In this document: piece by piece, positions 3,770 through 26,954 of the stretch
How the letters are laid out: every line of letters begins with the position of its first letter
Position numbering within the stretch: position 1 is the stretch's first letter
Position numbers and translations under genes: made by a program
Notes under the pieces: model-generated
What the model saw: the letters and a program-made list of their open reading frames with translations, nothing else
Told to the model about the DNA's origin: nothing
The model's database searches: none
NCBI GenBank assembly: GCA_001724245.1
Contig: MEDX01000019.1
Span: 1-64,000 of the forward strand
Length of the DNA stretch: 64,000 nt
Source of the DNA: Fonticula-like sp. SCN 57-25
Taxonomy: Eukaryota
Reading direction: 5' to 3'

Positions 3770-5572
3770 ATGTTGATGCGGCGGGCGCTGGCGGTGCGGG
3801 CGGTGCTGCCACGCCTCCCGCTGCCCGCGCTGAGCGACACGATCGCCCGCTACACCGCCGCGGTTGAGCCGCTGTGCGATGAAAGGGATGCCAAGCATTC
3901 GGTGGGACTGCTGAGCGACTTTGCTGCAAAGGACGGCGAGGGCCTCCAGCGGGACCTCGCCGAGATTGCGGCCTTCCCGCGCGAATCGTACCCCGGCAGC
4001 TTTGTGGAAAAGTACTGGGATGACATGTACCTCGAGGGGCGCTGGGCGCTTCCCATCAACAGCAATCCCGCCCTCATGATCAAGAGTCGCGAGACGCGAT
4101 CGGTACGAGCTCTTTTTGGAACCGCCATTTCTGACGATCCGTAGCAAGCGCGCAGCGCAGCGGCACTGATCTTGTCGAGCGCGCGCTTTGCCCGCCGCGC
4201 GCTCACCGGTGAGCTGAGCCAGACGCCCGGACCGCTTGATATGCGGCAGTACAGCCGCATGTTTTGCTCGTCGCGGATCCCCCTCCGCGGCCGCGACAAG
4301 ATCGCCCTTTCGGCCGACATCCCGGCCGACCAGCAGCATGCCGTCGTGCTTCGCGGCGATCGCGCCTACCGCATCCGCGTGCTTGACAAGGACGGCGCGA
4401 CGGTTACCGAGGCAGGACTTCGCAGCGCGCTAGAAAAGCTTCTTTCCGAACCCGTGTCCTGCGATCCGTCGCGCCTCGTTTCGTCACTGACCTCGCTGGA
4501 GCGCGACACATGGGCTTCCGTGCGCGCCGATCTTGAGCAGATCCCGGTGAACCGCGCGACGCTTTCCGCAATTGACTCTGCTCTCTTTGTTGTCGTTCTT
4601 GACGCGTCATCCCCTTGCGATGCCGCCGCCGCCTCCTCGCACGCGCTCCACGGCGCGTCCGGTGCTCTCGACCCCCGCTGGTTTGACAAGTCGATGCAGC
4701 TCCTCGTCGCGCCCGACGGCCAGTTTGGCGTCAACTTTGAGCACAGCTGGGGCGACGGCGCGTGCGTCGGCCGCTTTGTGCAAGAGGTCGTGTCGGACAT
4801 GGACGGCGTCCCGAGCGGCTTCCCCCCGCTGAGCGACCCCGCCGCCTTTTCCGACGCTGCACTCGAGCCGCTCCGCTGGGACCTCTCGGACGCCATCCGC
4901 GCGCGCATTTCGGACGCATCGCGCGCACTTGTCGCGTCCGCTGACGGCATGGAAAGCGCTGTGCTTCAGTTTGACCGCTTTGGCAAGGACTTTAGCAAGA
5001 AGAACAAGATGAGCCCCGACGCCCTCGTGCAGATGGCGTTCCAGCTGGCCGCGTGGCAGCAGAGCGGCCGCGTGCTCCCAACATACGAGTCGTGCAACAT
5101 GCAGCACTTTCACTGCGGGCGCACCGACGCCATCCGCAGCGCCTCGGGAGACGCCAAAAGTATGGCTCAAGGGTGGGCACGCGCCGACAATGCCCAGCGA
5201 CGCGCCCTTCTCTCTGCCGCCACGGCGCGCCAGGAGCAGCTGACCAAAGAGACGCGCGAGGGTAAGGGCTTTGATAGGCATCTCTACGCGCTGCGCTTCC
5301 GCGCAAAGGAAACGGGCCGCGCTGAGCACGAATTTTTCTCGAGCACCGCGTATCAGACGCTCAATTCAAACCTGCTGTCGACGAGCACCGTGTCGCTGCC
5401 GTCGCTGCGCCTCGCGGGGTTCGGGCCGGTGCACGCGGACGGTTTCGGCGTCGCTTACGCCATTCACAACAATGAGCTGGCGTTTAACATTACGTCTTTT
5501 AGAAAGGGCACCGCCGTGCAGTTTGCTGACGCGCTCGAAAAGGCCCTGTCCGACATTGAAAATATGTTTTGA
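3770..5572 (+). CDS. Carnitine O-acyltransferase, CPT2-like; 2 exons (alternative start 3752)
   Basis: LPRLPLPALSDTIARY, WDDMYL, RWFDKS, FEHSWGDG (catalytic His, CPT2-like), TYESC..FHCGRTD, GKGFDRHLYALR, LSTST, GFGPVHADGFGVAY. Intron 4103-4144. Confidence 0.9.
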
Positions 5573-8485: not shown

Positions 8486-11126
8486 CTAGTTTGCCGCCGG
8501 CGCGTTACCCGCATCAGCATTGCCCGGCGCAATCGGCGTCGGCGCCGTGGCCGCCTTGAGCGGCGGCGGAATCGCAGCGGCAATCGAGGCCGGAATTGCC
8601 GGCGTACTGGCCGCGGGAATCGCCGCAGCGGCCACAGCGGCATTGGCGGGAACGGCCGCGGTGGAATTGGCGGGAACGGCAGTCTGAGCAGTAACTGTAG
8701 TAGGAACTGCAGTGGCGGTAACAGTAGTAGGAACAGCCGTGGCAGTAACAGTAGTTGCAGTCGCAGTTACAGTAGTCGCAGTGGCCGTAATAGTAGATGC
8801 AGTGGCCGTGATAGTAGATGCAGTGGCCGTCATAGTAGATGCAGTGGCCGTCATAGTAGATGCAGTTGCAGTCATAGTAGTGGGAACGGCTGTCGCGACT
8901 GCAGTGGCAGAGGCAGAGGGAGAAAAGGCCTTTGGCACAGCAGTGGCCGCAGCAACAGAAGGCGCACTCGCAGCAGCAAACACTGCCGGAACCGCCGTAG
9001 TTTGCGCTCCAGTTTGCACGGGAGTTTGCACAGCCGCAGGGGTCGTCTTTGCCTCATCGGCCGCCTCGGCAATGTCCTCGGGGGCGGCAATCGTGTCCGT
9101 CGAAGACGACTTGCTCATTCCACCCGCCGTGTCCACGTGGCCGAGTGTGTCATCAAGCGCAGCATTCTCCACGTGGTCATGTACTTCCTGCACTTCGTCA
9201 TGGGCAGTCTCGTGAGCAGCGTCGTACTCTGCCTCGTGTGTGTGGTGAATGTCCTCATGAGCCTCATACTCGTGCTCCACGTGGCCATCATACTGATCAT
9301 ACCCCTCCACGTGACCATCCCCTTCCACGTGGCCCTGATCGTAGTCATACTCGTTTTCGTCTGTCCACGGGTGCAGCGGCTGCGGGTCGAGGTACCCAAT
9401 CTCATCATAATAGTACCCCTGATCGTCCTGATAGTACCTCGCATTCGGCGCGCGCTGCACCTGCTCCTCCTGCCGCGCATAATAGTCGTCGAGGTCGTCG
9501 CCCTCGTCGTCATACGCGTCGTGCTGCGCCTCGGTGGCCATGTAGGCAAGGTCGTCGTCGTCCGGCAGCGCCGCGTCGATCCAGTGCGCCTCGTGCGCGC
9601 CCTCGTCGGCCCACCAGTCCTCACCGGGGCCGCCGCCGTGCGCGTCGCCGCCTTCGTGGGCGCGGCCAAACACATTTGCGGCGTTGCTGATCATGAGCTG
9701 GAGCACGACGCTCAGGCCGCGCATGACGTTGAAGGCGGCGCCGCCGAGGGCTTCGTCGCGCGACCACGCAAAGTTGGGGCCGAGGACGAGTGCGAGGTTC
9801 GAGGCGTGCATCTTGTTCACGTCGGCTTCCTTGGCGAGCTCGCCGAGGTACTCGACAATGTAGCGCAGCGTCGCGTGGGTGGGCTCGGTGACGTAGTTGG
9901 AAAGAAGCCACTGGATGGCGCCGATGCGGTCGTCGGCGGTCGCCATGTCGGGGATCGTGTTGATAAAGTTGAAAAGAGAGGTCGAAAGAAGAGGCTCGGG
10001 GAGTGACTTTAAAAACATCTTGAGAAGGTTGGCGGAAATGTGAGCGTCGCGGAGAGTGGAAAAGTCGACAAGCTCGCCGTCGTTGAGGCGGCGGCGGACT
10101 TGGCGGAGCGTCGCGAGGCTCGAAGAGACGCGGAAAAGACCCTCAGTGCGGAGCGCATCTAAAGAAAAATGTCAGCAAAAGAGGCAAAGTACATGGGCAC
10201 GTGGCTGCGCGTATTGAAAGTACCTTTTGTTCTGATGGCCGTGATGAGGTCGACGATGATGAGCGGGACGCCATCGGAGGAAAGCGTCAGCTCGTTCAGA
10301 GGAGCGCCGAAAACGGGGCCGCGCGTCTAAAAAGCGAAAAGGTGTCAATAAATGGCGATAAAACAAGAGAACAGGCGTACGCGGCGGTACGTGCGCGCTC
10401 CGGGATCGTAAGGCTACGCAAAAACATCGTCAGTCAAATAGGGCGGTTTGCCAAGGGGGATGCGTACGACGACGGCGCGCTCGTAGCGCGGCAGGCGCGG
10501 AATAGAGCGGTACGTGACCTCGGGCACGTTAAAGGCGTCAACGAACCTGCAGAAAAAAGTCAGAAAAAAGCGCGCGGCTTCCCGATGCGTACCGATCCGA
10601 CTCGGGCACGATGGGCGCATCTGAGCAACGCAAATGGGGGCAAAACGATTAGAACAAAAGTGAGAAAAAAACAGGCGCGAACCGATTTCCTTGGTAAACA
10701 CAAGGCAGTGCGCCTCGGTGACTTCGTTGCGGGGAAAGCCGATCACGCGGATGTTGGGGTACACGGTTCTGCGCGCCGGGTTAGCGACAAGAAAAAAACG
10801 GAACTCAAGCGCACTTTGCGCCGTAAACTGTCACAAGCCGCCAGCCAAACTTGTTGCACACATTGATGGCGCGCGCCACAGAGTAGTAGAGGCCGCAATA
10901 CCTACAAAGGCGCGCGGTGAGTATCAAAGGGAAAGATGGGCAAAACGTCTTACCAGCCGCGATCGTCGACGGCCTTGTACTTGCTGGGGCAGTTTCGAGA
11001 AAAGGCCGAAAGGAGCGCGCGACGAGTGCGGTCCGTCTCGCCGCTGCAAACGCGCACGCCCTTTACGCTAAAGCACTCGACCACGAGGAAGCCGTTCCGC
11101 GGCGCCGTCGCCGCCTTGTCCTCCAT
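8486..11126 (-). CDS. RhoGAP-domain protein with long acidic and Thr/Ala-rich C-terminal tail; multi-exon, 5' exon structure uncertain
   Basis: Spliced reading gives VFGAPL...GVPLIIVDLITAIRTK/ALRTEGLFRVSS (arginine finger) ...ANLLKMFLKSLPEPLL...NKMHASNLALVLGPN. ATG at 11126 lies just downstream of an E-box and CCAAT. Confidence 0.82.
8690..8885 (-). repeat. Coding minisatellite, mostly 21-bp units encoding T(M/I/V)TATA(S/T)
   Basis: Repeated gcagtggccgt(c/a/g)atagtagat units on the + strand; protein TMTATASTMTATASTMTATASTITATASTITATAT. Confidence 0.85.
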
Positions 11127-11556: not shown

Positions 11557-12573
11557 TTACTTCTTCTGGCGCTTGTTCTTGCGCTCGCCCTCCTGCTGCG
11601 AAAAGTTGACTGCCTTGCGCACGTTTACGTCCGTGGCGGGCTTGGCAATCTTTTCAACAAACTCGAGCGCCTTCTTGCGCTCGAGCGCCGAGTTGCCGGC
11701 GGCCGACTCCTTCTGCTGCCTCTTCTTGATTGGCTTGTCGGTGTCGAGCGCCTTGTCAAAGCGGCCAAGCGACGCAGTGGAGGTCCTCGTGACGGCAAGC
11801 TTGACCTCGAGCTCCTTCTTGAGGTTGGCGCGCTGCTCGCGGGCGACGGCAGTCTCCTCGGCCTGGCGCGCGTGGCGGGCGGCAGTGGCGAGCTGCTTGG
11901 CGGATCCCTGCGCCAACTTGGGCGCCATCTCGACGGGCATCGGCGCGACCGCCACACCCTTGAGGCCCTTGCGCTGCAGGCGCTCGGCCGTCTCGGCGTT
12001 GCGCGCCTGCGAGGCTTTGTTCTTGGCGATGCGCTTCTTCTTCTCCTCGGCGCGCTTCTCAAACTGATCCTCGTACGGGTCGGCATTGGCCGGCACCTCG
12101 ATGGCCCAGTCGTTCTGGTCGTCGTTGGCGCGCTTGTAGCCAAAGCGCGGCATCCACTCCTGCTTCGCCTCGTCCCAAATCATGCGCGAGCGCTTCTTCT
12201 TCTGGATGCCCTTGCTCTTGGCAAACTGCTCCCAGCGCGTCAGCGGGCGGTCCTTGGGCAGCGGCTTCTCGCGAGGGAGCGCCGTCGAAACGGGCGGGAG
12301 CTCAACGACTACTACCTGGCCTTCGCGACGCGTGGGCAGCGCAAAGATCTCGTTCACGAGGAGCTGCGCATTGTCGCGATGGAGCGCCTGTAACCGCGAC
12401 TCCTTGGCCTCCTTGTCCTCGCCAGCGGCAAACGAAAAGGGCGAAACATCAAAAACGGTGAGATTGCCAAGGTCAAACACCGGCGGCACCTCCTTCTCCA
12501 CCTCTGTCGTCTTGTACTTTTGGCGGACGCTCGCAAGCTCGGCCACGAGCCCCTCGGCATCCATCGTTGACAT
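11557..12573 (-). CDS. RRS1: Ribosome biogenesis regulatory protein RRS1; intronless
   Basis: FDLGNLTVFD, RDNAQLLVNEIFALP, LPREKPLPK, TRWEQFAKSKGIQKKK, WMPRFGYK, STASLGRFDK. The real start is MSTMDAEG inside ORF 11557..13251. Confidence 0.95.
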   Translation of the reverse strand: MSTMDAEGLVAELASVRQKYKTTEVEKEVPPVFDLGNLTVFDVSPFSFAAGEDKEAKESRLQALHRDNAQLLVNEIFALPTRREGQVVVVELPPVSTALPREKPLPKDRPLTRWEQFAKSKGIQKKKRSRMIWDEAKQEWMPRFGYKRANDDQNDWAIEVPANADPYEDQFEKRAEEKKKRIAKNKASQARNAETAERLQRKGLKGVAVAPMPVEMAPKLAQGSAKQLATAARHARQAEETAVAREQRANLKKELEVKLAVTRTSTASLGRFDKALDTDKPIKKRQQKESAAGNSALERKKALEFVEKIAKPATDVNVRKAVNFSQQEGERKNKRQKK

Positions 12574-12657
12574 GGTGCCGCACGTCAAGCACCGCGTGGC
12601 GAGATTAGTGACAGCCCTGTGACAGCCCTGTAGGATTGATGATCTGAACTCGAAACG

Positions 12658-14064
12658 ATGACGGACGCGGGGGCTGCGTGGCCGGCATCGGTGTGGCTGC
12701 ACATTGCGTCGTACCTGACGGACCCGCATGACCTCCTCTCTCTCTGCGCGACGAACCGCCGCCTTCGGCGGCTCGCGTCGTCCGCGCCGCTGTGGCGCGC
12801 CATGTGCGATCGCGCGTGGCCCGAGTGGACCGCCGCGCAGGTCGACGTACTCGACACGCGTACCTTCAACTGGAAGTTCGCCTTTGCGCGGCAGTGCAAG
12901 CTGCTTCAGCGCGCGCAGCGCCCCAAGCATCTCCCCCGCGGCCCGCGCGCGCTGAGTGACAAGGAGCGGTGCTCGCGATGCCGCCGCCCAACCGTCGCGT
13001 GCTTTTGCGCATCCCTCCCCGCCGAGCCCATCGACAACAGCGCATGCCCGGTGTTGATCCTGCAGGACACTAAGACGCAGGTGTCGATCGGCACCGTGCA
13101 AATCCTTCAGCTCGCGCTCACCCACTGCACGGTCATCAACGACAGGGATTTTGGCGAGGGCGTTCACCCAGAGCTCGATGCAGTGCTGGCGTCCGGCAGC
13201 GCCTACCTGCTGTTCCCCTCCATCTCGGCGAGGCCAGTCAAGGACTGCCACCTCGAAAGGGCAATGCAGCTCGCCAGTGTAAAGGAAAACGGAACAACAC
13301 CGCCGCCGCCAATTACCCTCATCGGTACGCCATTGGTGGCAAGGGAAGGGTTGGAATTTTTTTTGTATGGTATGGTATGGCGTGATATGCTGTGATATGA
13401 AATATTACTATTCTCTAGTTAATCAACATGTATAGGTATATTTATTGTATCTATTCGTGTATATAATGTATGTTTTCTGCATGTTTATGTATAGAAATTC
13501 CCAGTTCCCTTTACTTACTTCATCTTCCACTTCAGCGATTGACGGAAGCTGGCGCACCGCCAAGGCCATCTACCGCTGGAACCCCCGCCTCGCCCTCCAC
13601 ACACTTCCTGTCCAGATCACCGACACGGAGGCAAGCGTGTTCGGAGAGATTAAGAGGGAGCCAAAGGAACATTTCTTGTCGACAATGGAGGCGGTCGCAA
13701 AGGCACTTGGCGGGCTTTTGACGGGAGACGAAAACTCAATTTTGCCGGTACGATAATTAATTCATAATGTGTTTTGGATACAAATTGTGTGTTATGTAAT
13801 GTATTTTTGATAGGAATTACGTGTTTTTGATAAGAGAAATTTTTGTTATAGATAAGGAAAGTGTATGTTTAGATATGATTTCTTTGGTTTTAGATATGCA
13901 AAGTGTTTGTTTTAGATATAGTTTCTTGCTTTTATTTATGAATTATGGCTCACAATTGTGCTTAGAGTTTGTTGCCTGCGCTGAGGCATATTGTCACGCT
14001 GCAGCTCGAGTTTGCCAAGGCGGGAAATGAAAGGCGAGAGGAGCGCGCAAGGCAGGCGGAATGA
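12658..14064 (+). CDS. F-box + DTW-domain (tRNA-uridine aminocarboxypropyltransferase, DTWD2/TapT-like) fusion; 3 exons
   Basis: F-box [46 protein letters not shown] elements RCSRCRRPTVACFC, AYLLFPS, IDGSWRTAKAIY, LSTMEAVAKAL. Exons 12658-13324, 13536-13747, 13966-14064 join in frame. Confidence 0.82.
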
Positions 14065-14293: not shown

Positions 14294-17090
14294 TCAAATA
14301 GGCCTGACATTGAGCGGCTCCTCCTCATTGGTCGTATCTCCCAACGTCACGTGCACCTTCTGCCCATCATGCAGCGTTCCCGCCACAATGTCCCTCGAAA
14401 GCGGCCGCATAAGTGCCTTGGCAATAAGCCTATTCAGTGGCCTAGCACCATATGCAGGATCATATCCCTCCTATAAAACAAATAAAGTCAGTATTTAAAT
14501 ATGAATAAAGTAATAAGAAATGTACCTTTGCGAGCCATTCTTTGACGGCGTCCTCAACGTCCATCTTGATATGGTGTTGGTCGAGCATGCGCTGGGCGTC
14601 GGCGAGGCGGACGTCGACAATGTCGCGGAGCGTTTCAGGGGCAAGGCGGTTAAACACAACAAGCTGTAAAGAGAAATGTTGTTAGTGGAACTGAAATAGA
14701 GACAAAAGGGGAATAAACTGATATGAAAATGACATAAAAATGATATGAAAATGACATGAAATGCATCAAAAAGTGTCATAAAAAGACATTAAAAACATCA
14801 CAAAACATAAAAATGATCACAAAGGAGCCAAAAACTTCGCCAAAAACTTCATTTTCACTTCCCGTTCACCCCCTCATAACCATCCCAACACGTACCTCAT
14901 CGATTCTGTTGACGAATTCCGGCGCAAACTGCGACCTCAAATGCCCCAACACTCTCTCCTGCACCTGCTCAATCGGCGCCCCACTCGCAAACTCCTGCGC
15001 CCCCAAATTCGACGTCATAATAATAATCGTATTCTTAAAGTTGACCTTTACCCCCTGACTGTCCGTCAAGTGACCATCCTCAAGCACTTGCAGCAGCAAA
15101 TTCGCCACTTCCCTGTGCGCCTTTTCAAACTCATCCAGCAGTACAATCGAATATGGCTTGCGTCTCACTGCCTCTGTCAGCATGCCGCCCTCTTCGTAGC
15201 CAACGTAGCCGGGCGGTGCGCCAATAAGGCGGCTAACAGAGTGGCGCTCCATGTACTCGGACATGTCAATGCGAATCATGGCGTTTTCAGTGTCAAACAT
15301 GTACTGGGCAAGGGCCTTGCAGAGCTCGGTTTTGCCGACGCCGGTGGGGCCCATGAAGAGGAACGAGGCGATGGGGCGGTTGGGGTGGCTCAGGCCGGCG
15401 CGGGAGAGGCGGATGGCATTGGCGATGGAGGCAATGGCGCTCGATTGGCCTTTGACGCGCGAGGAAAGGTTGGATTCAATCGTGAGCAGTTTTTCGCGTT
15501 CGCCCTTGAGAAGTTGCTGAAAATGGGGAAAATGGGTCAGTAAAAAGATGAAAGGGTAAAGAAAAGTGGCAAAAGTACAGCAAAAAGTGCACAAAATCAC
15601 ACAAAATCACTTGAAAACAAGCCGGAATGCATCATAAAGTATCAAAATGCACACAAAATACACACAAAAACCCAAAATCAACATGTACGTACGTGAACAG
15701 GAACGCCCGTTGCGCGCGCAATCACCCTTGCGATATCATTTGACGTGACGCAATCACTGAGCATTGTCTCCTTTGTCGGGTCCGCATCATCATTCGCCAT
15801 CGGAATCTCCCTCTCGAGCCCCGGAATCACGCCATACCTCAACTCTCCCGCCCTTCCCAAATTTCCCTCGCGCTGCGCCTTTTCCAGCTCCGTCCTCGCC
15901 TTCTCGAGCCTCGACTGAACCGTCTTTATCTTTTCGAGCCTCTCCTTCTCCTCCTGCCAGCGCTCCGTGAGCTTCTTGGACTCTTCTTGCTTGTCCTCAA
16001 GCTCCTTCTTTGCAGCCTTGCACCTCGCACGTGACTCGCTGTCCTTTTCCTTGCTCAGTGCTTCGAGCTCAATCTTGAGCGTGATGATTTGGCGGTCGAG
16101 GTTTTCAATGACTTCGGGCTTGCTTTCCTGCTGCATGCGGAGGCGAGAAGCGGCCTCGTCGACGAGGTCGATTGCCTTGTCGGGGAGGAAGCGGCCGGTG
16201 ATGTAGCGGTTGGAGCCGACGGCGGCGGCGATCAGGGCGCTGTCAGAGATGCGCACGCCGTGGTGGACCTCGTACTTGTGCTTGAGGCCGCGGAGGACAG
16301 AGATCGTGTCCTCGACGGAAGGTTCGTTGACTGTGACGGGCTGGAAGCGGCGCGCGAGAGCAGCGTCTTTTTCAATGTACTTGCGGTACTCGGCGGTTGT
16401 GGTGGCGCCGCAGCAGCGGAGGGTGCCGCGGGCGAGGGCCGGCTTGAGCAGGTTCGAGGCGTCCATCGCGCCCTGGCCGGTCGAGCCAAGGCCGAGAAGC
16501 ATGTGAATCTCGTCAATAAAGAGAATGACGTTGCCGTTGCTGTCCTCGACGTCCTTGAGGACGGCCTTGAAGCGCTCCTCGAATTCGCCGCGGTACTTGC
16601 TGCCGGCGACGAGGGCGCCGAGATCGAGCGCCATCACCTTCTTCTTCTTGACGGAATCGGGGACATCATCGTTGATAATGCGCACAGCGAGGCCCTCGGC
16701 GATGGCCGTCTTGCCGACACCGGGAGCGCCGATCAGGATCGGATTGTTCTTGGTGCGCCGGGAGAGAACCTGGATCGTGCGGCGGATCTCTTCCTCGCGG
16801 CCAATCACGGGATCGAGCTTGCCTTCCTGCGCAAGCTGCGTCAGGTCGGTAGAAAACTGCTTCAGGGCCTGGCCTTTGGCATAGCCCTGCTCGCCTTGAT
16901 TCATCTGAAAGCCGCCAGGGCCCATGGCGTACGAGCGCGCAGGGGCATGCCGGCCGACATCCACCACAGAAGGAATCACGCGGGCGAGGGCCGCCGCCGG
17001 ACGAGCGGGCGCGCTCGAGGCGACGGCGGCGCGCGAAAAGTGGCGAAGGGAAGAAACTGTTAGTGCCCTGCGGGCTACTGACGTGAGCAT
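14294..17090 (-). CDS. HSP78: Mitochondrial ClpB/Hsp78-type AAA+ disaggregase; 4 exons
   Basis: Presequence with no Clp N-domain, [26 protein letters not shown], coiled-coil middle domain, [17 protein letters not shown], and last exon [13 protein letters not shown]. Confidence 0.92.
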
Positions 17091-17484
17091 CGCGAAAACG
17101 GTCCGAAAGCCGAGGGATCCCGGCTTTATGTACGTCAGCCCTTCCGAATCTTCGACGATCTTCGAAAATCACAATGTCTTCACATCTGAGTCTGGGGTGG
17201 ATTGTGTATGAAAAGGTCCACGAATAGTGGGAAACATGGAACGCGTAAGGTACTAGGCAGAAAGCAGAAGAGCAGCCGACAATTTCCTGCCTATTTACTG
17301 CATAGCCTTCTTGCCTACGTGTCCGCAATGTCGCCCGCAAGCAGCTAGCCCACCCCGATGGTCACAATCCTGTGACACGGATGTGCTCATCGGGCTGACC
17401 GACCAATCACAACTCGCCACTATTGCTGTCACGTTTTTTACCCGATTCTTGTTTTTACGCAACGCTTGGGCGGGGGAGACGACG

Positions 17485-19407: not shown

Positions 19408-19641
19408 CCTCCCACAACTTTGTGACAGGATTGCAGGCAACCTTGTGACCGGCCTGTTGTTTGTCAACAGCTGATTGGTCTGTTTCAACCCGACCGTGTG
19501 ACACAGTTCTGTCCGCACCTGTTTCGCACGCCTGGCCCGCGGTGATCCCCCGCCCCTCTCTTTGACCGCCCCTTCGCCGCCCTGTACAGGATAGATATGC
19601 GCATGCTCTCTGCGTAGAGCGAAACGCCATTTATATATCAC

Positions 19642-20790
19642 ATGTTTGACGATTCCGGGAGCGATGACTCGCTCCATCGGAGTCTCCATGTGACGCTTGC
19701 CGTCCTGTACGGCCTTTTGCTGTGCATCATTGTCTTTCAGCTCGGCCGCATCTTTGTGAACCATCACCGCCTTGCGAGCTTTCAATTTGCCTTTCTCGCG
19801 CTGTGTTTCTGCTGGATGGTCCTTCGCGAGTCCCTTGTCCTTTTAGTCCTTGTGCGCGAGGGTGATGCCGAGAGCCTCCCCGTCAAGAGCCTCCTCCCGC
19901 TGCTGCTCTTCCCGCTCAATCTCCAGATCGCGACCTACTCGCTTCTCGTCACCTTTTACGCGCACGTGGTACACCGCGCGCGCTGGGAAGACTATTACAA
20001 GCGGCGCGTATTCGGCACGTGGGCCGCCTCCAACATCTTTTTCCTCGTGTTCAGCATCGTCTGGCTGGCGCTCGTGCTGGGCAATCCTTCCGAATCGCTG
20101 CCGAGCAACGGCGGCCTCGCGCTCGTGATGCGCTTTTTGGTCCCCGCCATCGCCTTTTGCGTTCTTGTCGTGCTCCTTTCCTACTATGGCTACAAGCTTC
20201 GCAAGACGCTTCTGCATCATCCCGTCGCCCTTGTCCCGCTGCGCGCCAATGGCCTTTCCGTCAACAGCATCACCTTCATCACCGTGCTTCTCTGCATTGT
20301 CTTTTCGTGCCGCGCCATTTACTGCGCCGTCATGGCCTACGAGTCGTTCTACTACGACTACCCCGCCGGCGAGCAGCCCGTCTTTGGCTTCATCTCGCTG
20401 TTCGTCTCGGACATCACCCCGACGTTTGCGATCCTCTACTTTTTCCGCCACATTCCCCGCGAGAGCGGCGCCGCCTTTGACGGCACCAACAGCAGGCTGC
20501 TCCCGCCCGCTTTCCAGCAAAACGTCAACGGCGGGATCTCATCGCCGAGCGGCGCGCTCGGCAAGCGAAACGTCGTCGGGGTCGACTCGTCGGTCAACTA
20601 CTTTGGGTCGTCCGACATGTTTTCCGACGACGAAGACGAAGACATGGGCGACGAAGAAGACGCCGTTTTATACGCCGACGAGTCGTTCACGCCGATTCTC
20701 ACGACGCAGCAGATCATCGCGTCAATGCCGAGGGCGTCGACGACGGTAGGGAGCGGGCAGGCGTACGGGGTAGCGCCATTTGATAAATAG
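19642..20790 (+). CDS. GPR137/TOM1-THH1 (DUF1084)-like 7-TM membrane protein; intronless
   Basis: Seven hydrophobic segments; SFQFAFLALCFCWMVLR, FPLNLQIATYSLL and DITPTFAILYFFR match GPR137-family motifs; acidic tail. Confidence 0.78.
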   Translation: MFDDSGSDDSLHRSLHVTLAVLYGLLLCIIVFQLGRIFVNHHRLASFQFAFLALCFCWMVLRESLVLLVLVREGDAESLPVKSLLPLLLFPLNLQIATYSLLVTFYAHVVHRARWEDYYKRRVFGTWAASNIFFLVFSIVWLALVLGNPSESLPSNGGLALVMRFLVPAIAFCVLVVLLSYYGYKLRKTLLHHPVALVPLRANGLSVNSITFITVLLCIVFSCRAIYCAVMAYESFYYDYPAGEQPVFGFISLFVSDITPTFAILYFFRHIPRESGAAFDGTNSRLLPPAFQQNVNGGISSPSGALGKRNVVGVDSSVNYFGSSDMFSDDEDEDMGDEEDAVLYADESFTPILTTQQIIASMPRASTTVGSGQAYGVAPFDK

Positions 20791-24032: not shown

Positions 24033-26954
24033 TTACGCGGTAAACGCAGCGGCAACAGCCACAATAGCAGCGGCAGCCACGACGAGCGGCGCCACGCCAG
24101 CGTACGACGCGCCAGATCCGGTCGGGGTCGGCGTCACAGACGGCGGGACGGTCGGCGGCGGCGTCAGACCAGGAACTACCAATCAGAAACAAGCATTTCA
24201 CATGTTAGCCAATCACGCTTTAGGTTATATGTGCACGCACCCTTGCTGAAGCCAACGACGCACTGCGCCATGCGGGAGCCAGCGTTGCCGGTGGGCTGCG
24301 TCGTGCAGTCATCGGGGTTGGAGTGGATGATGAAGCCGTGGCCGAGCGCGCTGCTCTTGCCGGTCGGCGAAAGACTACGCAAAATATTATGGTCAGTATG
24401 GGACGGAAGGTACAGGCAATTCACATAATATGTATCATCACATTACCACGATAATGTTTCCTCATAGAATATAATACACACCACAAATTGCTCAATACAT
24501 TTTTAACCATATTTCCATCATTATCCACTCCCGCCATTTCCCGCCACTTTTCTTTTGCGTACGTAAGCAGGTGAGTCGTAACGTTGGCATTAACAACACC
24601 GCCAGTCGACGCCTCAATGTTGCCGAGATCGCCCGCGTGGCGCACCTCGGGGTCGCAGCCGTGCGCCGTGTTGGACGGGTTAAAGTGACCGCCGGTCTTG
24701 GAGCCGCCGGCCGTATCGCTGACGTCACCAAAGGCGTGCACGTGGAAGCCGTGGATAGAAGAAGCGACAAAGTCGCGCGCGGAGACGGACACGTGGACGC
24801 CGGCGTCGGAGGGCGTGAGGCGGATGGTGCCGCGGACATTGGAGCTGTTGATGTCTTCGAGGACGCACGTGGCCTCGTAGTCGGTCACTGAATGGTGTGT
24901 CAGCGAAGAGAACAAAAGGAAGAGCGAAAAAGACTCAGTAGACAATGACGAAATATACAAAAGATAGGCATAAATAGACAGATATTGACCAGAACACAAC
25001 CAAATGTAGTCCATCGAAATCGACTTCAAAACATATACAATAAACATCAACTGTACCGATGGGCGGCGACACGACGGTAGTAGCGAGGGGCGACTCGAAC
25101 GCGTAGCCAACAACGCCAGCCATGAGAATGTTGCCAACTATAACACGTCAGCAAAAAAAAACATTTAAGTTCATCGGCACGTACCGTTGTAGCTAGCATC
25201 GCACGAGTCGACGTGCGATGAGAGGGACACACCGCGGCCGATAATAAAGCCGCTCGACGACGCGTCCAGCCTACAAATACGTTAGCCTAACCACATGGCA
25301 ACACACTCGCGTACGAAGAAAGAGGCGAAAACATGACAGCGTTGGCGCCAGTGGTCGCCGTATACTGCACATTGCCGAGGCCGCCAGCCTCGCCCGACGA
25401 GCCGCAGCCGTGCGGCGCGTCAGTCGGGTTGAAAACGCTGCCGAGATGCGCCGCGCGGCCGTCGGTCATGTCACCGAGCGTGTGAATGTGCACGCTGAGC
25501 GTCGTGTCGGCCGTAAAAGTGCCAGTGGGAATGTTCAAAACGTGGACGGCGGACGGGCGGCCGTTGTTGAAAACGCGGTGCGACTCGACGGTGGCGTACG
25601 CGCCGGCGGCAAAGGACGTGCCGGCGGCGGGGCGGAGGCGGGCGATGGAGTGCGCGTCGGGGATGGCGGCGGAGCCGCGGATGCCAATCACGCCGGCGGC
25701 GAACGGCGTGCTGCCGCGGTTGCCGTCGGGGACGGTCGTGCAGTCGTCCGAGCCAAAGACGCCGACGCCGCGGCCGACAATGTAGGCGCTGCTGCGTTTG
25801 AGGAGGAGAGCGCCGTCAGGGATGGCGACGCTCGCGCTGTAGACAATGCCGTCGGCGGAGGCGACAAAGTTGCCGAGGAAGCCGTGAATGCTCGTGCAGG
25901 CGGGGGAAGCGCTGGTAGGGTCAAAGATGGCGGCGTTGCTGAGGTCAGAAATGTCGCCGGCGGCGAGGACGTAGACGGAGCAGCGCTCGTTGGCGCCGAG
26001 GCCGGAGAGGAAGACGGTGGCGGTGAGGGTGGCGCCGTCGGAAGTCTCCTTGAAGGTGACCTGGCCGTTGACGTTGGCGCCGCGGAGGATGGCGACGGCG
26101 GACAGGAGGTCGCTCGTCACGGCTAAAGAGGGTGTCAGAAGCAAAAAAACTACGGTATTCTCAAAATGGCGCACCCGGAGGCGTAACGTTGGCGGGCTCC
26201 TCGGAGGAGCTCTTGATACCGATGACACCGGTGAGGAGGCGCGAGCCGGCATTGCCGGTAGGCTGGGTCACGCAATCGTCGGCAGCCGAGTGCACGACAA
26301 TCATGCGGCCGAGAATGTACGAGGTGCTGTTGGCGTCGAGCGAAGCGCCCTGGCTGACAAACATCTTGGAGCCGGTGCCATCGGCGCCGATCTCAATGTT
26401 GCCCTAAGGGATGCGTTAGAAAGAGGAGCGATGACGTCGACGCACGAGATCGCCAGCGTGGCGAGGGCCGGTGCAGGCGTGGGAGAGGCCTTCGGGGTTG
26501 TAGTGGCCGCCAGCAGCAGAGCCGTCGGTGCTAGCGAGATCGCCAAACTGGTGCAGGTGGACGCCGAGGGTGCGGCCTAGCGACGAGGCTTAGCAGGGAA
26601 GTGTGTGGGGGGAGAGGGGGGAGAGAAGCAAAAAGAGACGAAAAAAGATACAATAAAGTGAAGAAAAACGTACTCGCAGGCATGCCAGAAAGGGAAACTT
26701 CAACAGAAATGCCGGCCGTCTATTAAAACACCGTTAGCGAGATCGAGCTGCGAAGCGTCGACGCACGGTGTTGGTCAAAAGAACGGTGCCCGAGCATGTC
26801 GTGCATCCCGCCGTCGGAGTCAGCTTTGCAACAAAAGTGGGAAAAGCTAAAAGATCGTGCTGGTCAGTAAAATAAAAATATATTTTCGCGCGCGCGCAAA
26901 CGCACCGCTGGCCGTAGCCGCCAGCGCAAGCAGCAGAAGCGCCGCCGCCTTCAT
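24033..26954 (-). CDS. Secreted, probably GPI-anchored protein with four tandem Cu/Zn-SOD (SodC-like) domains; about 10 exons
   Basis: Signal peptide MKAAALLLLALAATASG. Domain 1 GVHLHQFGD..GGHYNP..HAC..RHAGDLGNI..IVVHSAADDCVTQPTGNAGSR. Domain 4 GFHVHAFGD..GGHFNP..HGC..RHAGDLGNI..IIHSNPDDCTTQPTGNAGSR. Two degenerate domains lie between. Tail is P/T-rich then SGASYAGVAPLVVAAAAIVAVAAAFTA-stop. Confidence 0.85.

Follow-up and report, generated by a model that had tools for sequence, protein, structure and literature searches.

A conserved fusion of an F-box and a DTW domain encoded in the genome of Fonticula-like sp. SCN 57-25

What role could a tRNA-modifying domain play when it is joined to an F-box? 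This question is raised by a gene on contig MEDX01000019.1 of the eukaryote Fonticula-like sp. SCN 57-25 (assembly GCA_001724245.1), located at positions 12,658 to 14,064 of the 64,000-nucleotide stretch that we analyzed (positions 1 to 64,000 of the forward strand, hereafter the window). DTW enzymes (TapT, DTWD1, and DTWD2) have been described as stand-alone writers of 3-(3-amino-3-carboxypropyl)uridine (acp3U) in tRNA. The protein encoded here carries an F-box in front of its DTW domain, and we found that this architecture is real, conserved, and uncharacterized, its members already residing in public databases under automatic names. We lean toward the view that the protein is an active transferase of the 3-amino-3-carboxypropyl (acp) group, of the TapT/DTWD2 type and dependent on S-adenosylmethionine (SAM), whose F-box would dock Skp1.

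Gene structure and predicted folds

The gene is encoded on the plus strand in three exons with GT-AG introns, and its 978-nt coding sequence translates to 325 aa (Table 1). The open reading frame (ORF) is unbroken from the ATG at 12658, with an in-frame TGA 18 nt 5' of it, and the coding sequence ends with the TGA at 14062-14064. Splicing by script at consensus sites gave the boundaries ATCG/gtacg and cttcag/CGATT for the first intron and TGCCG/gtacg and gcttag/AGTTT for the second (introns in lower case). Exon 1 encodes both the F-box and the DTW zinc knuckle, since it matches both Pfam families by itself. An earlier preliminary description, made from the DNA letters alone, had stated that the two share an exon and that their fusion is no splicing artefact, and in this it was right.

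Exon 1 by itself (222 aa) matched the F-box-like family PF12937 at residues 9-51 with 38.4 bits (cutoff 24.3; E 1.1e-9) and the DTW family PF03942 at residues 103-203 with 47.0 bits (cutoff 33.7; profile positions 2-101). Exon 2 matched PF03942 with 47.6 bits over profile positions 116-173 of 195, again against the cutoff of 33.7. The Pfam check proposed in the preliminary description thus placed each domain above its curated cutoff on the exons of the window. When a single sequence was searched against the PDB with phmmer, all eight matches at E<=1 were F-box proteins; TapT was absent from these matches, and a family profile was required to reach it. This profile matched E. coli TapT (9kyt_A, E 5.8e-10) as well as F-box proteins that were solved with Skp1 (FBXO3, 1.3e-8; SKP2, 4e-5).

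Structure prediction agreed with both assignments. The model of exon 1 (alignment A1) had a predicted local distance difference test score (pLDDT) of 82.7 overall and of 90-93 over residues 11-60, with F-box helices at 10-17, 23-30, 34-40, and 43-53. It shows the three-helix F-box fold: its core superposed on those of FBXL5 and KDM2B with a root-mean-square deviation (rmsd) of 0.8 Å over 40 columns, the best FBXW-type rows fitted at 2.3-2.8 Å over 84-89 columns, and the F-box-plus-linker regions of FBW7 and FBXO3 were matched as well. An AlphaFold2 model of the relative P0006 (Basidiobolus), computed from a 55-row alignment, reached a pLDDT of 85.4 and a predicted template modelling (TM) score of 0.83. 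This model matched the crystal structures of TapT (E about 1e-6, TM by target 0.63-0.71) and placed its F-box on those of the Skp1-bound SKP2, FBW7, and FBXL2 (rmsd 0.8-1.7 Å, 40-53 columns); its C-terminal helix spans residues 343-374. That the window protein has the SPOUT-like knotted alpha/beta fold is suggested by the TapT match of the P0006 model; the half-DTW of its own exon 1 matched TapT weakly (E 0.09).

A clade of F-box-DTW proteins

To what extent does the fusion occur elsewhere? A HMMER search of 1.84 billion representative sequences recovered 233 proteins at E<=1e-3 and 17 at E<=1e-10; the sole match at E<=1e-30 was the window's own ORF. A word-index homology search with exon 1 likewise returned this ORF only (one of 473 candidates), and the ESM Atlas yielded no usable match. 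We scanned 20 of the best 25 relatives with Pfam. All 20 had a DTW match, which fell below the cutoff in two partial proteins. An F-box or F-box-like domain scored above the curated cutoff in ten of them (P0002, P0006, P0007, P0010, P0014, P0015, P0016, P0017, P0019, and P0022) and below it in five (P0005, P0008, P0009, P0011, and P0018), and the remaining five gave no Pfam F-box match (P0004, P0013, P0020, P0023, and P0025). A local hidden Markov model (HMM) built from the F-boxes of the clade gave about 18 bits for both P0020 and P0025, a value that is circular and therefore indicative only.

The named members span several lineages. They include Ichthyophonus hoferi of the Ichthyosporea, the choanoflagellate Stephanoeca diplocostata, the aphelid Amoeboaphelidium protococcarum (without a Pfam F-box), Basidiobolus meristosporus and Piptocephalis cylindrospora of the Zoopagomycota, Jimgerdemannia flammicorona of the Endogonales, and, of the Mortierellomycota, Dissophora, Entomortierella, two Actinomortierella species, Lunasporangiospora, and Benniella. 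Dikaryan and animal members were not among the named members found. Several of these proteins are called "tRNA-uridine aminocarboxypropyltransferase" in UniRef, by automatic naming and not by test.

A phylogeny of the DTW domain united these proteins. The tree was a quick, unrooted one (IQ-TREE, LG+G4) and comprised 111 of 170 sequences, those with a near-complete DTW domain; among the 59 left out were the partial P0002, P0152, P0013-P0015, and P0022, and P0001, a duplicate of the spliced window row. All 18 rows labeled as bearing an F-box, together with P0023, formed one group with a support of 98 in the Shimodaira-Hasegawa approximate likelihood ratio test (SH-aLRT). The label rests on Pfam or the local HMM in 16 of the 18 rows and on weaker evidence in P0004 and P0011. 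It changes twice on the tree, as compared with a mean of 17 changes in shuffles. Fish DTWD2 (P0030, in a separate group of 31 rows), the green-algal P0021, and the bacterial P0036 fell outside the clade, and the F-box rows did not group with named DTWD2; the tree has no row named DTWD1.

The closest relatives of the window protein are metagenomic: the cluster P0002/P0152, with 42-43% identity to exon 1, and the loci on contigs L001-L004. The DTW region is matched on all four contigs; of these, L001 and L003 extend to the N-terminus and encode the F-box as well. In this one pair of metagenomic relatives, to which the window protein does not belong, the ratio of nonsynonymous to synonymous substitution rates (dN/dS) was 0.07 across the 60 codons of the F-box (dN 0.023, dS 0.315), as compared with 0.18 in the 69 codons before it and 0.71 in the 98 after it. 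The F-box of this pair is under strong purifying selection.

The fusion is, then, a conserved clade and not a one-off. The preliminary description had named a common and characterized fusion among the things that would refute it; the fusion does recur, but we found no characterization of it. Our survey of the literature on F-box proteins with DTW, Tsr3, or acp3U, judged mostly by title, brought up no description of an F-box-DTW fusion, and the DTWD phylogeny in Supplementary Fig. 8 of PMC6895100 could bear on this point. In the discussion of that 2019 paper, DTWD1 orthologues are reported to be absent from fungi and plants, and fungi are not listed among the holders of DTWD2 (PMC6895100). The F-box-bearing DTW proteins appear to constitute a third clade, in early-diverging fungi and unicellular holozoans. 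The interest lies in this clade, of which the window gene is one more member.

Several relatives show variations of their own. In five Mortierellomycota orthologues (P0009, P0014, P0017, P0154, and P0155), an insertion of about 60 residues interrupts the F-box, so that the local F-box HMM matches at about residues 2-26 and then at about 69-122; in P0009 and P0017, the Pfam F-box match is limited to the first 17-19 profile positions. In P0152, from L001, the C-x2-C and C-x-C halves of the zinc knuckle are separated by about 30 in-frame residues more than in P0002, and these look like an intron that a prokaryotic gene caller translated in frame. Four metagenome or Logan proteins (P0013, P0015, P0016, and P0022) share a conserved Cys/His insert, C-x-C-G-x-(P/A)-x-G-H-(D/E)-(Y/F), directly before the DGSW strand, which may be a second metal site. 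Finally, P0169 (423 aa, from JGI) carries precomputed Pfam matches to a pseudouridine synthase (PF00849) and to DTW, another fusion of RNA-modifying modules.

Catalytic residues and possible functions

We next asked whether the DTW half retains what catalysis requires. TapT residues were transferred to the window protein through the profile and family alignments, with the numbering of chain 9kyt_A offset by +28, as set by its cysteines 3, 6, 13, and 15, which are C31, C34, C41, and C43 of TapT. These four correspond to C105, C108, C115, and C117 of the window protein; they form the C-x2-C-x6-C-x-C motif as defined in PMC7026641 and bind the zinc ion in the TapT crystal (PMC12630136). Similarly, P111 of TapT corresponds to P187, D137 to D225, W140 to W228, and T182 to T272. 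Substitutions at these TapT positions are reported to be severe: P111G and W140A leave less than 20% of the activity, D137A, D137N, and T182A leave less than 10% (PMC12630136), and C31S/C34S abolishes the modification (PMC7026641). With these mutagenesis-backed TapT residues all retained, the DTW domain of the window protein looks intact. The N69-T70-G71 loop of TapT, which holds the carboxylate of SAM, aligns to the invariant G-T of the family only with a small offset.

Two departures from the usual DTW signatures had been singled out in the preliminary description, DGSW in place of DGTW and QDTKT in place of QHPxE. Both substitutions are indeed present, but neither carries the weight it first seemed to. 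The DGSW form is normal in the clade, because it fits the motif definition D/E-X-T/S-W (PMC12630136) and serine is the majority form there, found in 14 of 19 clade rows as compared with six of 92 other rows. D-G-(S/T)-W as such is present in 18 of the 19 rows, and the remaining row reads D-A-T-W. At the QHPxE columns, the 30 commonest variants outside the clade (92 rows) all read (H/N)P..E, and the clade consensus is QHP(K/R)CQ. The histidine is also absent in P0007 (QDPKC) and in the partial P0002 (QDPRT), which is outside the 19 rows. E. coli TapT, which is active, reads T-E-P-M-K at these columns, so the QHPxE consensus is not required for acp transfer, and QDTKT is a weak sign of inactivity. 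The clade-wide change could nevertheless mark a different substrate or chemistry.

Under the mechanism that we consider most likely, the DTW half, a zinc knuckle with a SPOUT-like SAM-binding core, would use SAM as the donor of an acp group that it places on a tRNA uridine, giving acp3U, and the F-box half would dock Skp1, placing the enzyme in a complex of the Skp1-cullin-F-box (SCF) type or in another Skp1 complex. The simplest use of such a tether would be to control the enzyme's own abundance; alternatively, it might serve to ubiquitinate proteins associated with the RNA substrate. The preliminary description had offered two options, an enzyme tethered to SCF and a DTW fold reused as a receptor. 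The architecture on which both depend is upheld by Pfam and by the models, and both stay live.

A number of points weigh against an active, Skp1-docked transferase. Its catalytic activity, RNA substrate, Skp1 binding, and the effect of the tether are all predictions from the domains. The glutamate of QHPxE is gone in 18 of the 19 clade rows, P0004 alone retaining it, and the QDTKT of the window protein is without the histidine and the proline as well; judged from these sequences, an altered or lost reaction is possible. The N69-T70-G71 loop of TapT is offset by one to two residues from the S-I-G-T loop of the family. As for the F-box, the classic model PF00646 gave 15.7 bits and did not reach its cutoff of 20.5, and W-P stands where L-P is customary. 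For the fold of the whole protein, the evidence is the model of P0006, which has 31% identity to exon 1, and the splice model is based on consensus sites and on the alignment of exons 2 and 3 with homologues to the C-terminus.

The most serious competitor, though a fairly unlikely one, is a pseudo-enzyme whose DTW domain no longer transfers acp and instead serves SCF as a substrate-binding module for tRNA, another RNA, SAM, or a protein. The lost glutamate, with the further divergence of the window protein at the same columns, would fit such a loss of function, as would the position of the domain, given that a binding module is what usually follows an F-box (the PDB matches are WD40, leucine-rich repeat, and similar receptors). 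The F-box is also the best-conserved segment in the L001/L003 pair, as expected for core SCF docking. However, a pure binder would have no need of the four zinc cysteines and of the equivalents of TapT P111, D137, W140, and T182, all of which are retained; the D-G-(S/T)-W motif is nearly universal in the clade; and TapT itself is active without QHPxE. A related possibility, to which we give somewhat less credence, is an SCF substrate receptor that reads RNA, the DTW domain holding tRNA or sensing its acp3U/SAM state and bringing itself or tRNA-bound proteins to ubiquitination.

The N-terminal helices might also have nothing to do with Skp1. We regard it as rather improbable that the protein is an active enzyme in which they act as an RNA-binding or localization extension, comparable to the basic N-terminus of TapT. 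That N-terminus is important for TapT: a deletion of 20 aa before the zinc knuckle abolishes activity (PMC7026641), and the Patch1 mutant R16/R19/R24/R27 is inactive (PMC12630136). The sub-cutoff score for PF00646 and the insertion that splits the box in five Mortierellomycota orthologues point the same way. Yet PF12937 is well over its cutoff, the box is recognizable from choanoflagellate to Mortierellomycota, and the modeled three-helix core lies on Skp1-bound F-boxes at 0.8 Å. As for an artefact of annotation or assembly, in which two genes, or a chance F-box-like stretch, were read as one protein, we consider it extremely improbable. The gene model was read from genomic sequence and homologues, and the word-index search found nothing beyond the window's own ORF, but the F-box and the first DTW half share one unbroken exon, other genomes and transcriptomes independently show the two domains in this order, and all four metagenomic contigs encode DTW matches, joined by an F-box in the two that extend far enough. 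We rejected the artefact on the grounds of the shared exon and of this recurrence.

If the protein is an active transferase, acp3U or a related acp mark is predicted in lineages that have not been assigned one, and the clade would be a naturally occurring example of RNA modification coupled to Skp1/SCF. If it is instead an RNA-reading SCF receptor, it would connect tRNA modification directly to the ubiquitin system, and this link would be ancestral in opisthokonts. Because acp3U was recently tied to glycoRNA attachment in animals (bioRxiv 10.1101/2023.11.06.565735), an acp3U writer whose turnover is regulated would also attract interest more widely.

Genomic surroundings and known systems

The gene is flanked by RRS1 in head-to-head orientation. 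The start codon of RRS1 is an inferred one, because its minus-strand frame continues open upstream: it extends about 830 nt beyond the likely ATG, antisense through the F-box exon (11557-13404, 615 aa from stop to stop). This extension probably results from the GC-richness of the exon and is unlikely to be coding. In the region between the two genes, the 11-nt unit GTGACAGCCCT occurs twice in exact tandem, at 12608-12629. The window holds no further copy at <=1 mismatch, and two matches also occurred in 25 of 100 shuffles; the tandem might have arisen by simple slippage, or it might act as a promoter element for both genes. The preliminary description had taken the shared 84-bp promoter as a hint of co-regulation with ribosome biogenesis. 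The spacing is as described, but the hint found no support in relatives: at E<=1e-3, tblastn found no RRS1 on contigs L001-L004, all four of which match the F-box-DTW protein. Informative flanks are present on L001, with about 2 kb of upstream sequence, and on L003, with about 6 kb on the upstream side and 4.7 kb on the downstream side, L002 and L004 being short and without an upstream flank. Since RRS1 is missing from the flanks of L001 and L003, the pairing looks local to this genome.

Table 1 Features of the F-box-DTW gene and its surroundings in the window
Feature	Positions	Strand	Basis or remark
ORFs matching MFS (major facilitator superfamily) transporter, carnitine/choline acyltransferase, RhoGAP, THH1/TOM1-3, Cu/Zn superoxide dismutase	372-1562, 4145-5572, 8486-10171 (-), 19618-20790, 25287-26267 (-)	as marked	Family matches
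RRS1, neighbor gene	11557-12573	-	PF04939, 201.3 bits
Head-to-head intergenic region RRS1/F-box-DTW, 84 nt	12574-12657		Between the start codons, that of RRS1 inferred
Exon 1: residues 1-222 and first base of codon 223; F-box, linker helices, zinc knuckle, first DTW half	12658-13324	+	ORF, GT donor at 13325, Pfam
F-box, residues 8-50	12679-12807	+	PF12937, PDB phmmer, exon-1 model
Post-F-box linker motif FNWKFAF	12865-12885	+	W72 invariant in 17-row family alignment; helix 72-87 in model
Zinc knuckle C-x2-C-x6-C-x-C: C105, C108, C115, C117	12970-13008	+	Sequence; aligned to TapT C31/C34/C41/C43
QDTKT, residues 136-140, at the QHPxE columns of most DTW proteins	13063-13077	+	Motif table
Intron 1, 211 nt, AT-rich, GT..AG	13325-13535	+	Frame and homologue alignment resume across it
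Exon 2: second DTW half with DGSW and LSTMEA	13536-13747	+	PF03942
DGSW, residues 225-228	13541-13552	+	Exon 2
LSTMEA	13676-13693	+	Within exon 2
Intron 2, 218 nt, GT..AG	13748-13965	+	Splice sites
Exon 3: C-terminal helix (SLLPALRHIVTLQLEF...) and stop codon	13966-14064	+	Aligns with C-terminal helix of P0006, P0007, P0016

Downstream of the F-box-DTW gene and convergent with it lies an Hsp78/ClpB gene of the mitochondrial type with at least one intron (14866-17168, minus strand). The best named eukaryotic matches of its exon are fungal (hsp78 of Gonapodya sp. and Mortierellaceae; 57-65% identity) and thus not nearer to it than alphaproteobacterial ClpB, which matches at 61-66%. Other ORFs of the window have family matches (Table 1), and the gene content looks like ordinary eukaryotic housekeeping. 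A scan of ten of the 30 window ORFs of >=300 aa detected neither Skp1 nor a cullin.

Among characterized proteins, the closest counterparts of the window protein are TapT (YfiP), which makes acp3U47, and DTWD2, which makes acp3U20/20a. It shares with them PF03942, the C-x2-C-x6-C-x-C and D/E-x-T/S-W motifs, and the equivalents of TapT P111, D137, W140, and T182. Where TapT has a short basic N-terminus, the window protein has an F-box followed by linker helices; it also differs from TapT and DTWD2 in the replacement of QHPxE, and its clade stands apart from fish DTWD2 (P0030) and the bacterial P0036. Tsr3, the 18S rRNA acp transferase of the TDD superfamily, has the SAM-dependent acp-transferase fold that is predicted for it, and its D..W and T are described as surrounding the sulfonium in the same way as in TapT-type enzymes (PMC12630136). 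Tsr3 is, however, described as lacking the N-terminal cysteine motif of YfiP-type proteins (PMC7026641). The window protein has this motif and therefore belongs with the tRNA-type enzymes. Its neighbor RRS1 is a ribosome-biogenesis gene, which might recall the rRNA enzyme Tsr3, but the adjacency is not conserved.

A second kind of precedent is offered by enzymes that carry an F-box on the same chain. The JmjC demethylases KDM2A and KDM2B combine a catalytic domain with an F-box in this way, and both the family profile and the models have their F-boxes among the PDB matches. The enzyme domain of the window protein, unlike theirs, has a predicted RNA acp-transferase fold and not that of a demethylase or a helicase, and its clade is known here from sequences and models. 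FBH1, an F-box helicase, is another enzyme with an F-box on the same chain.

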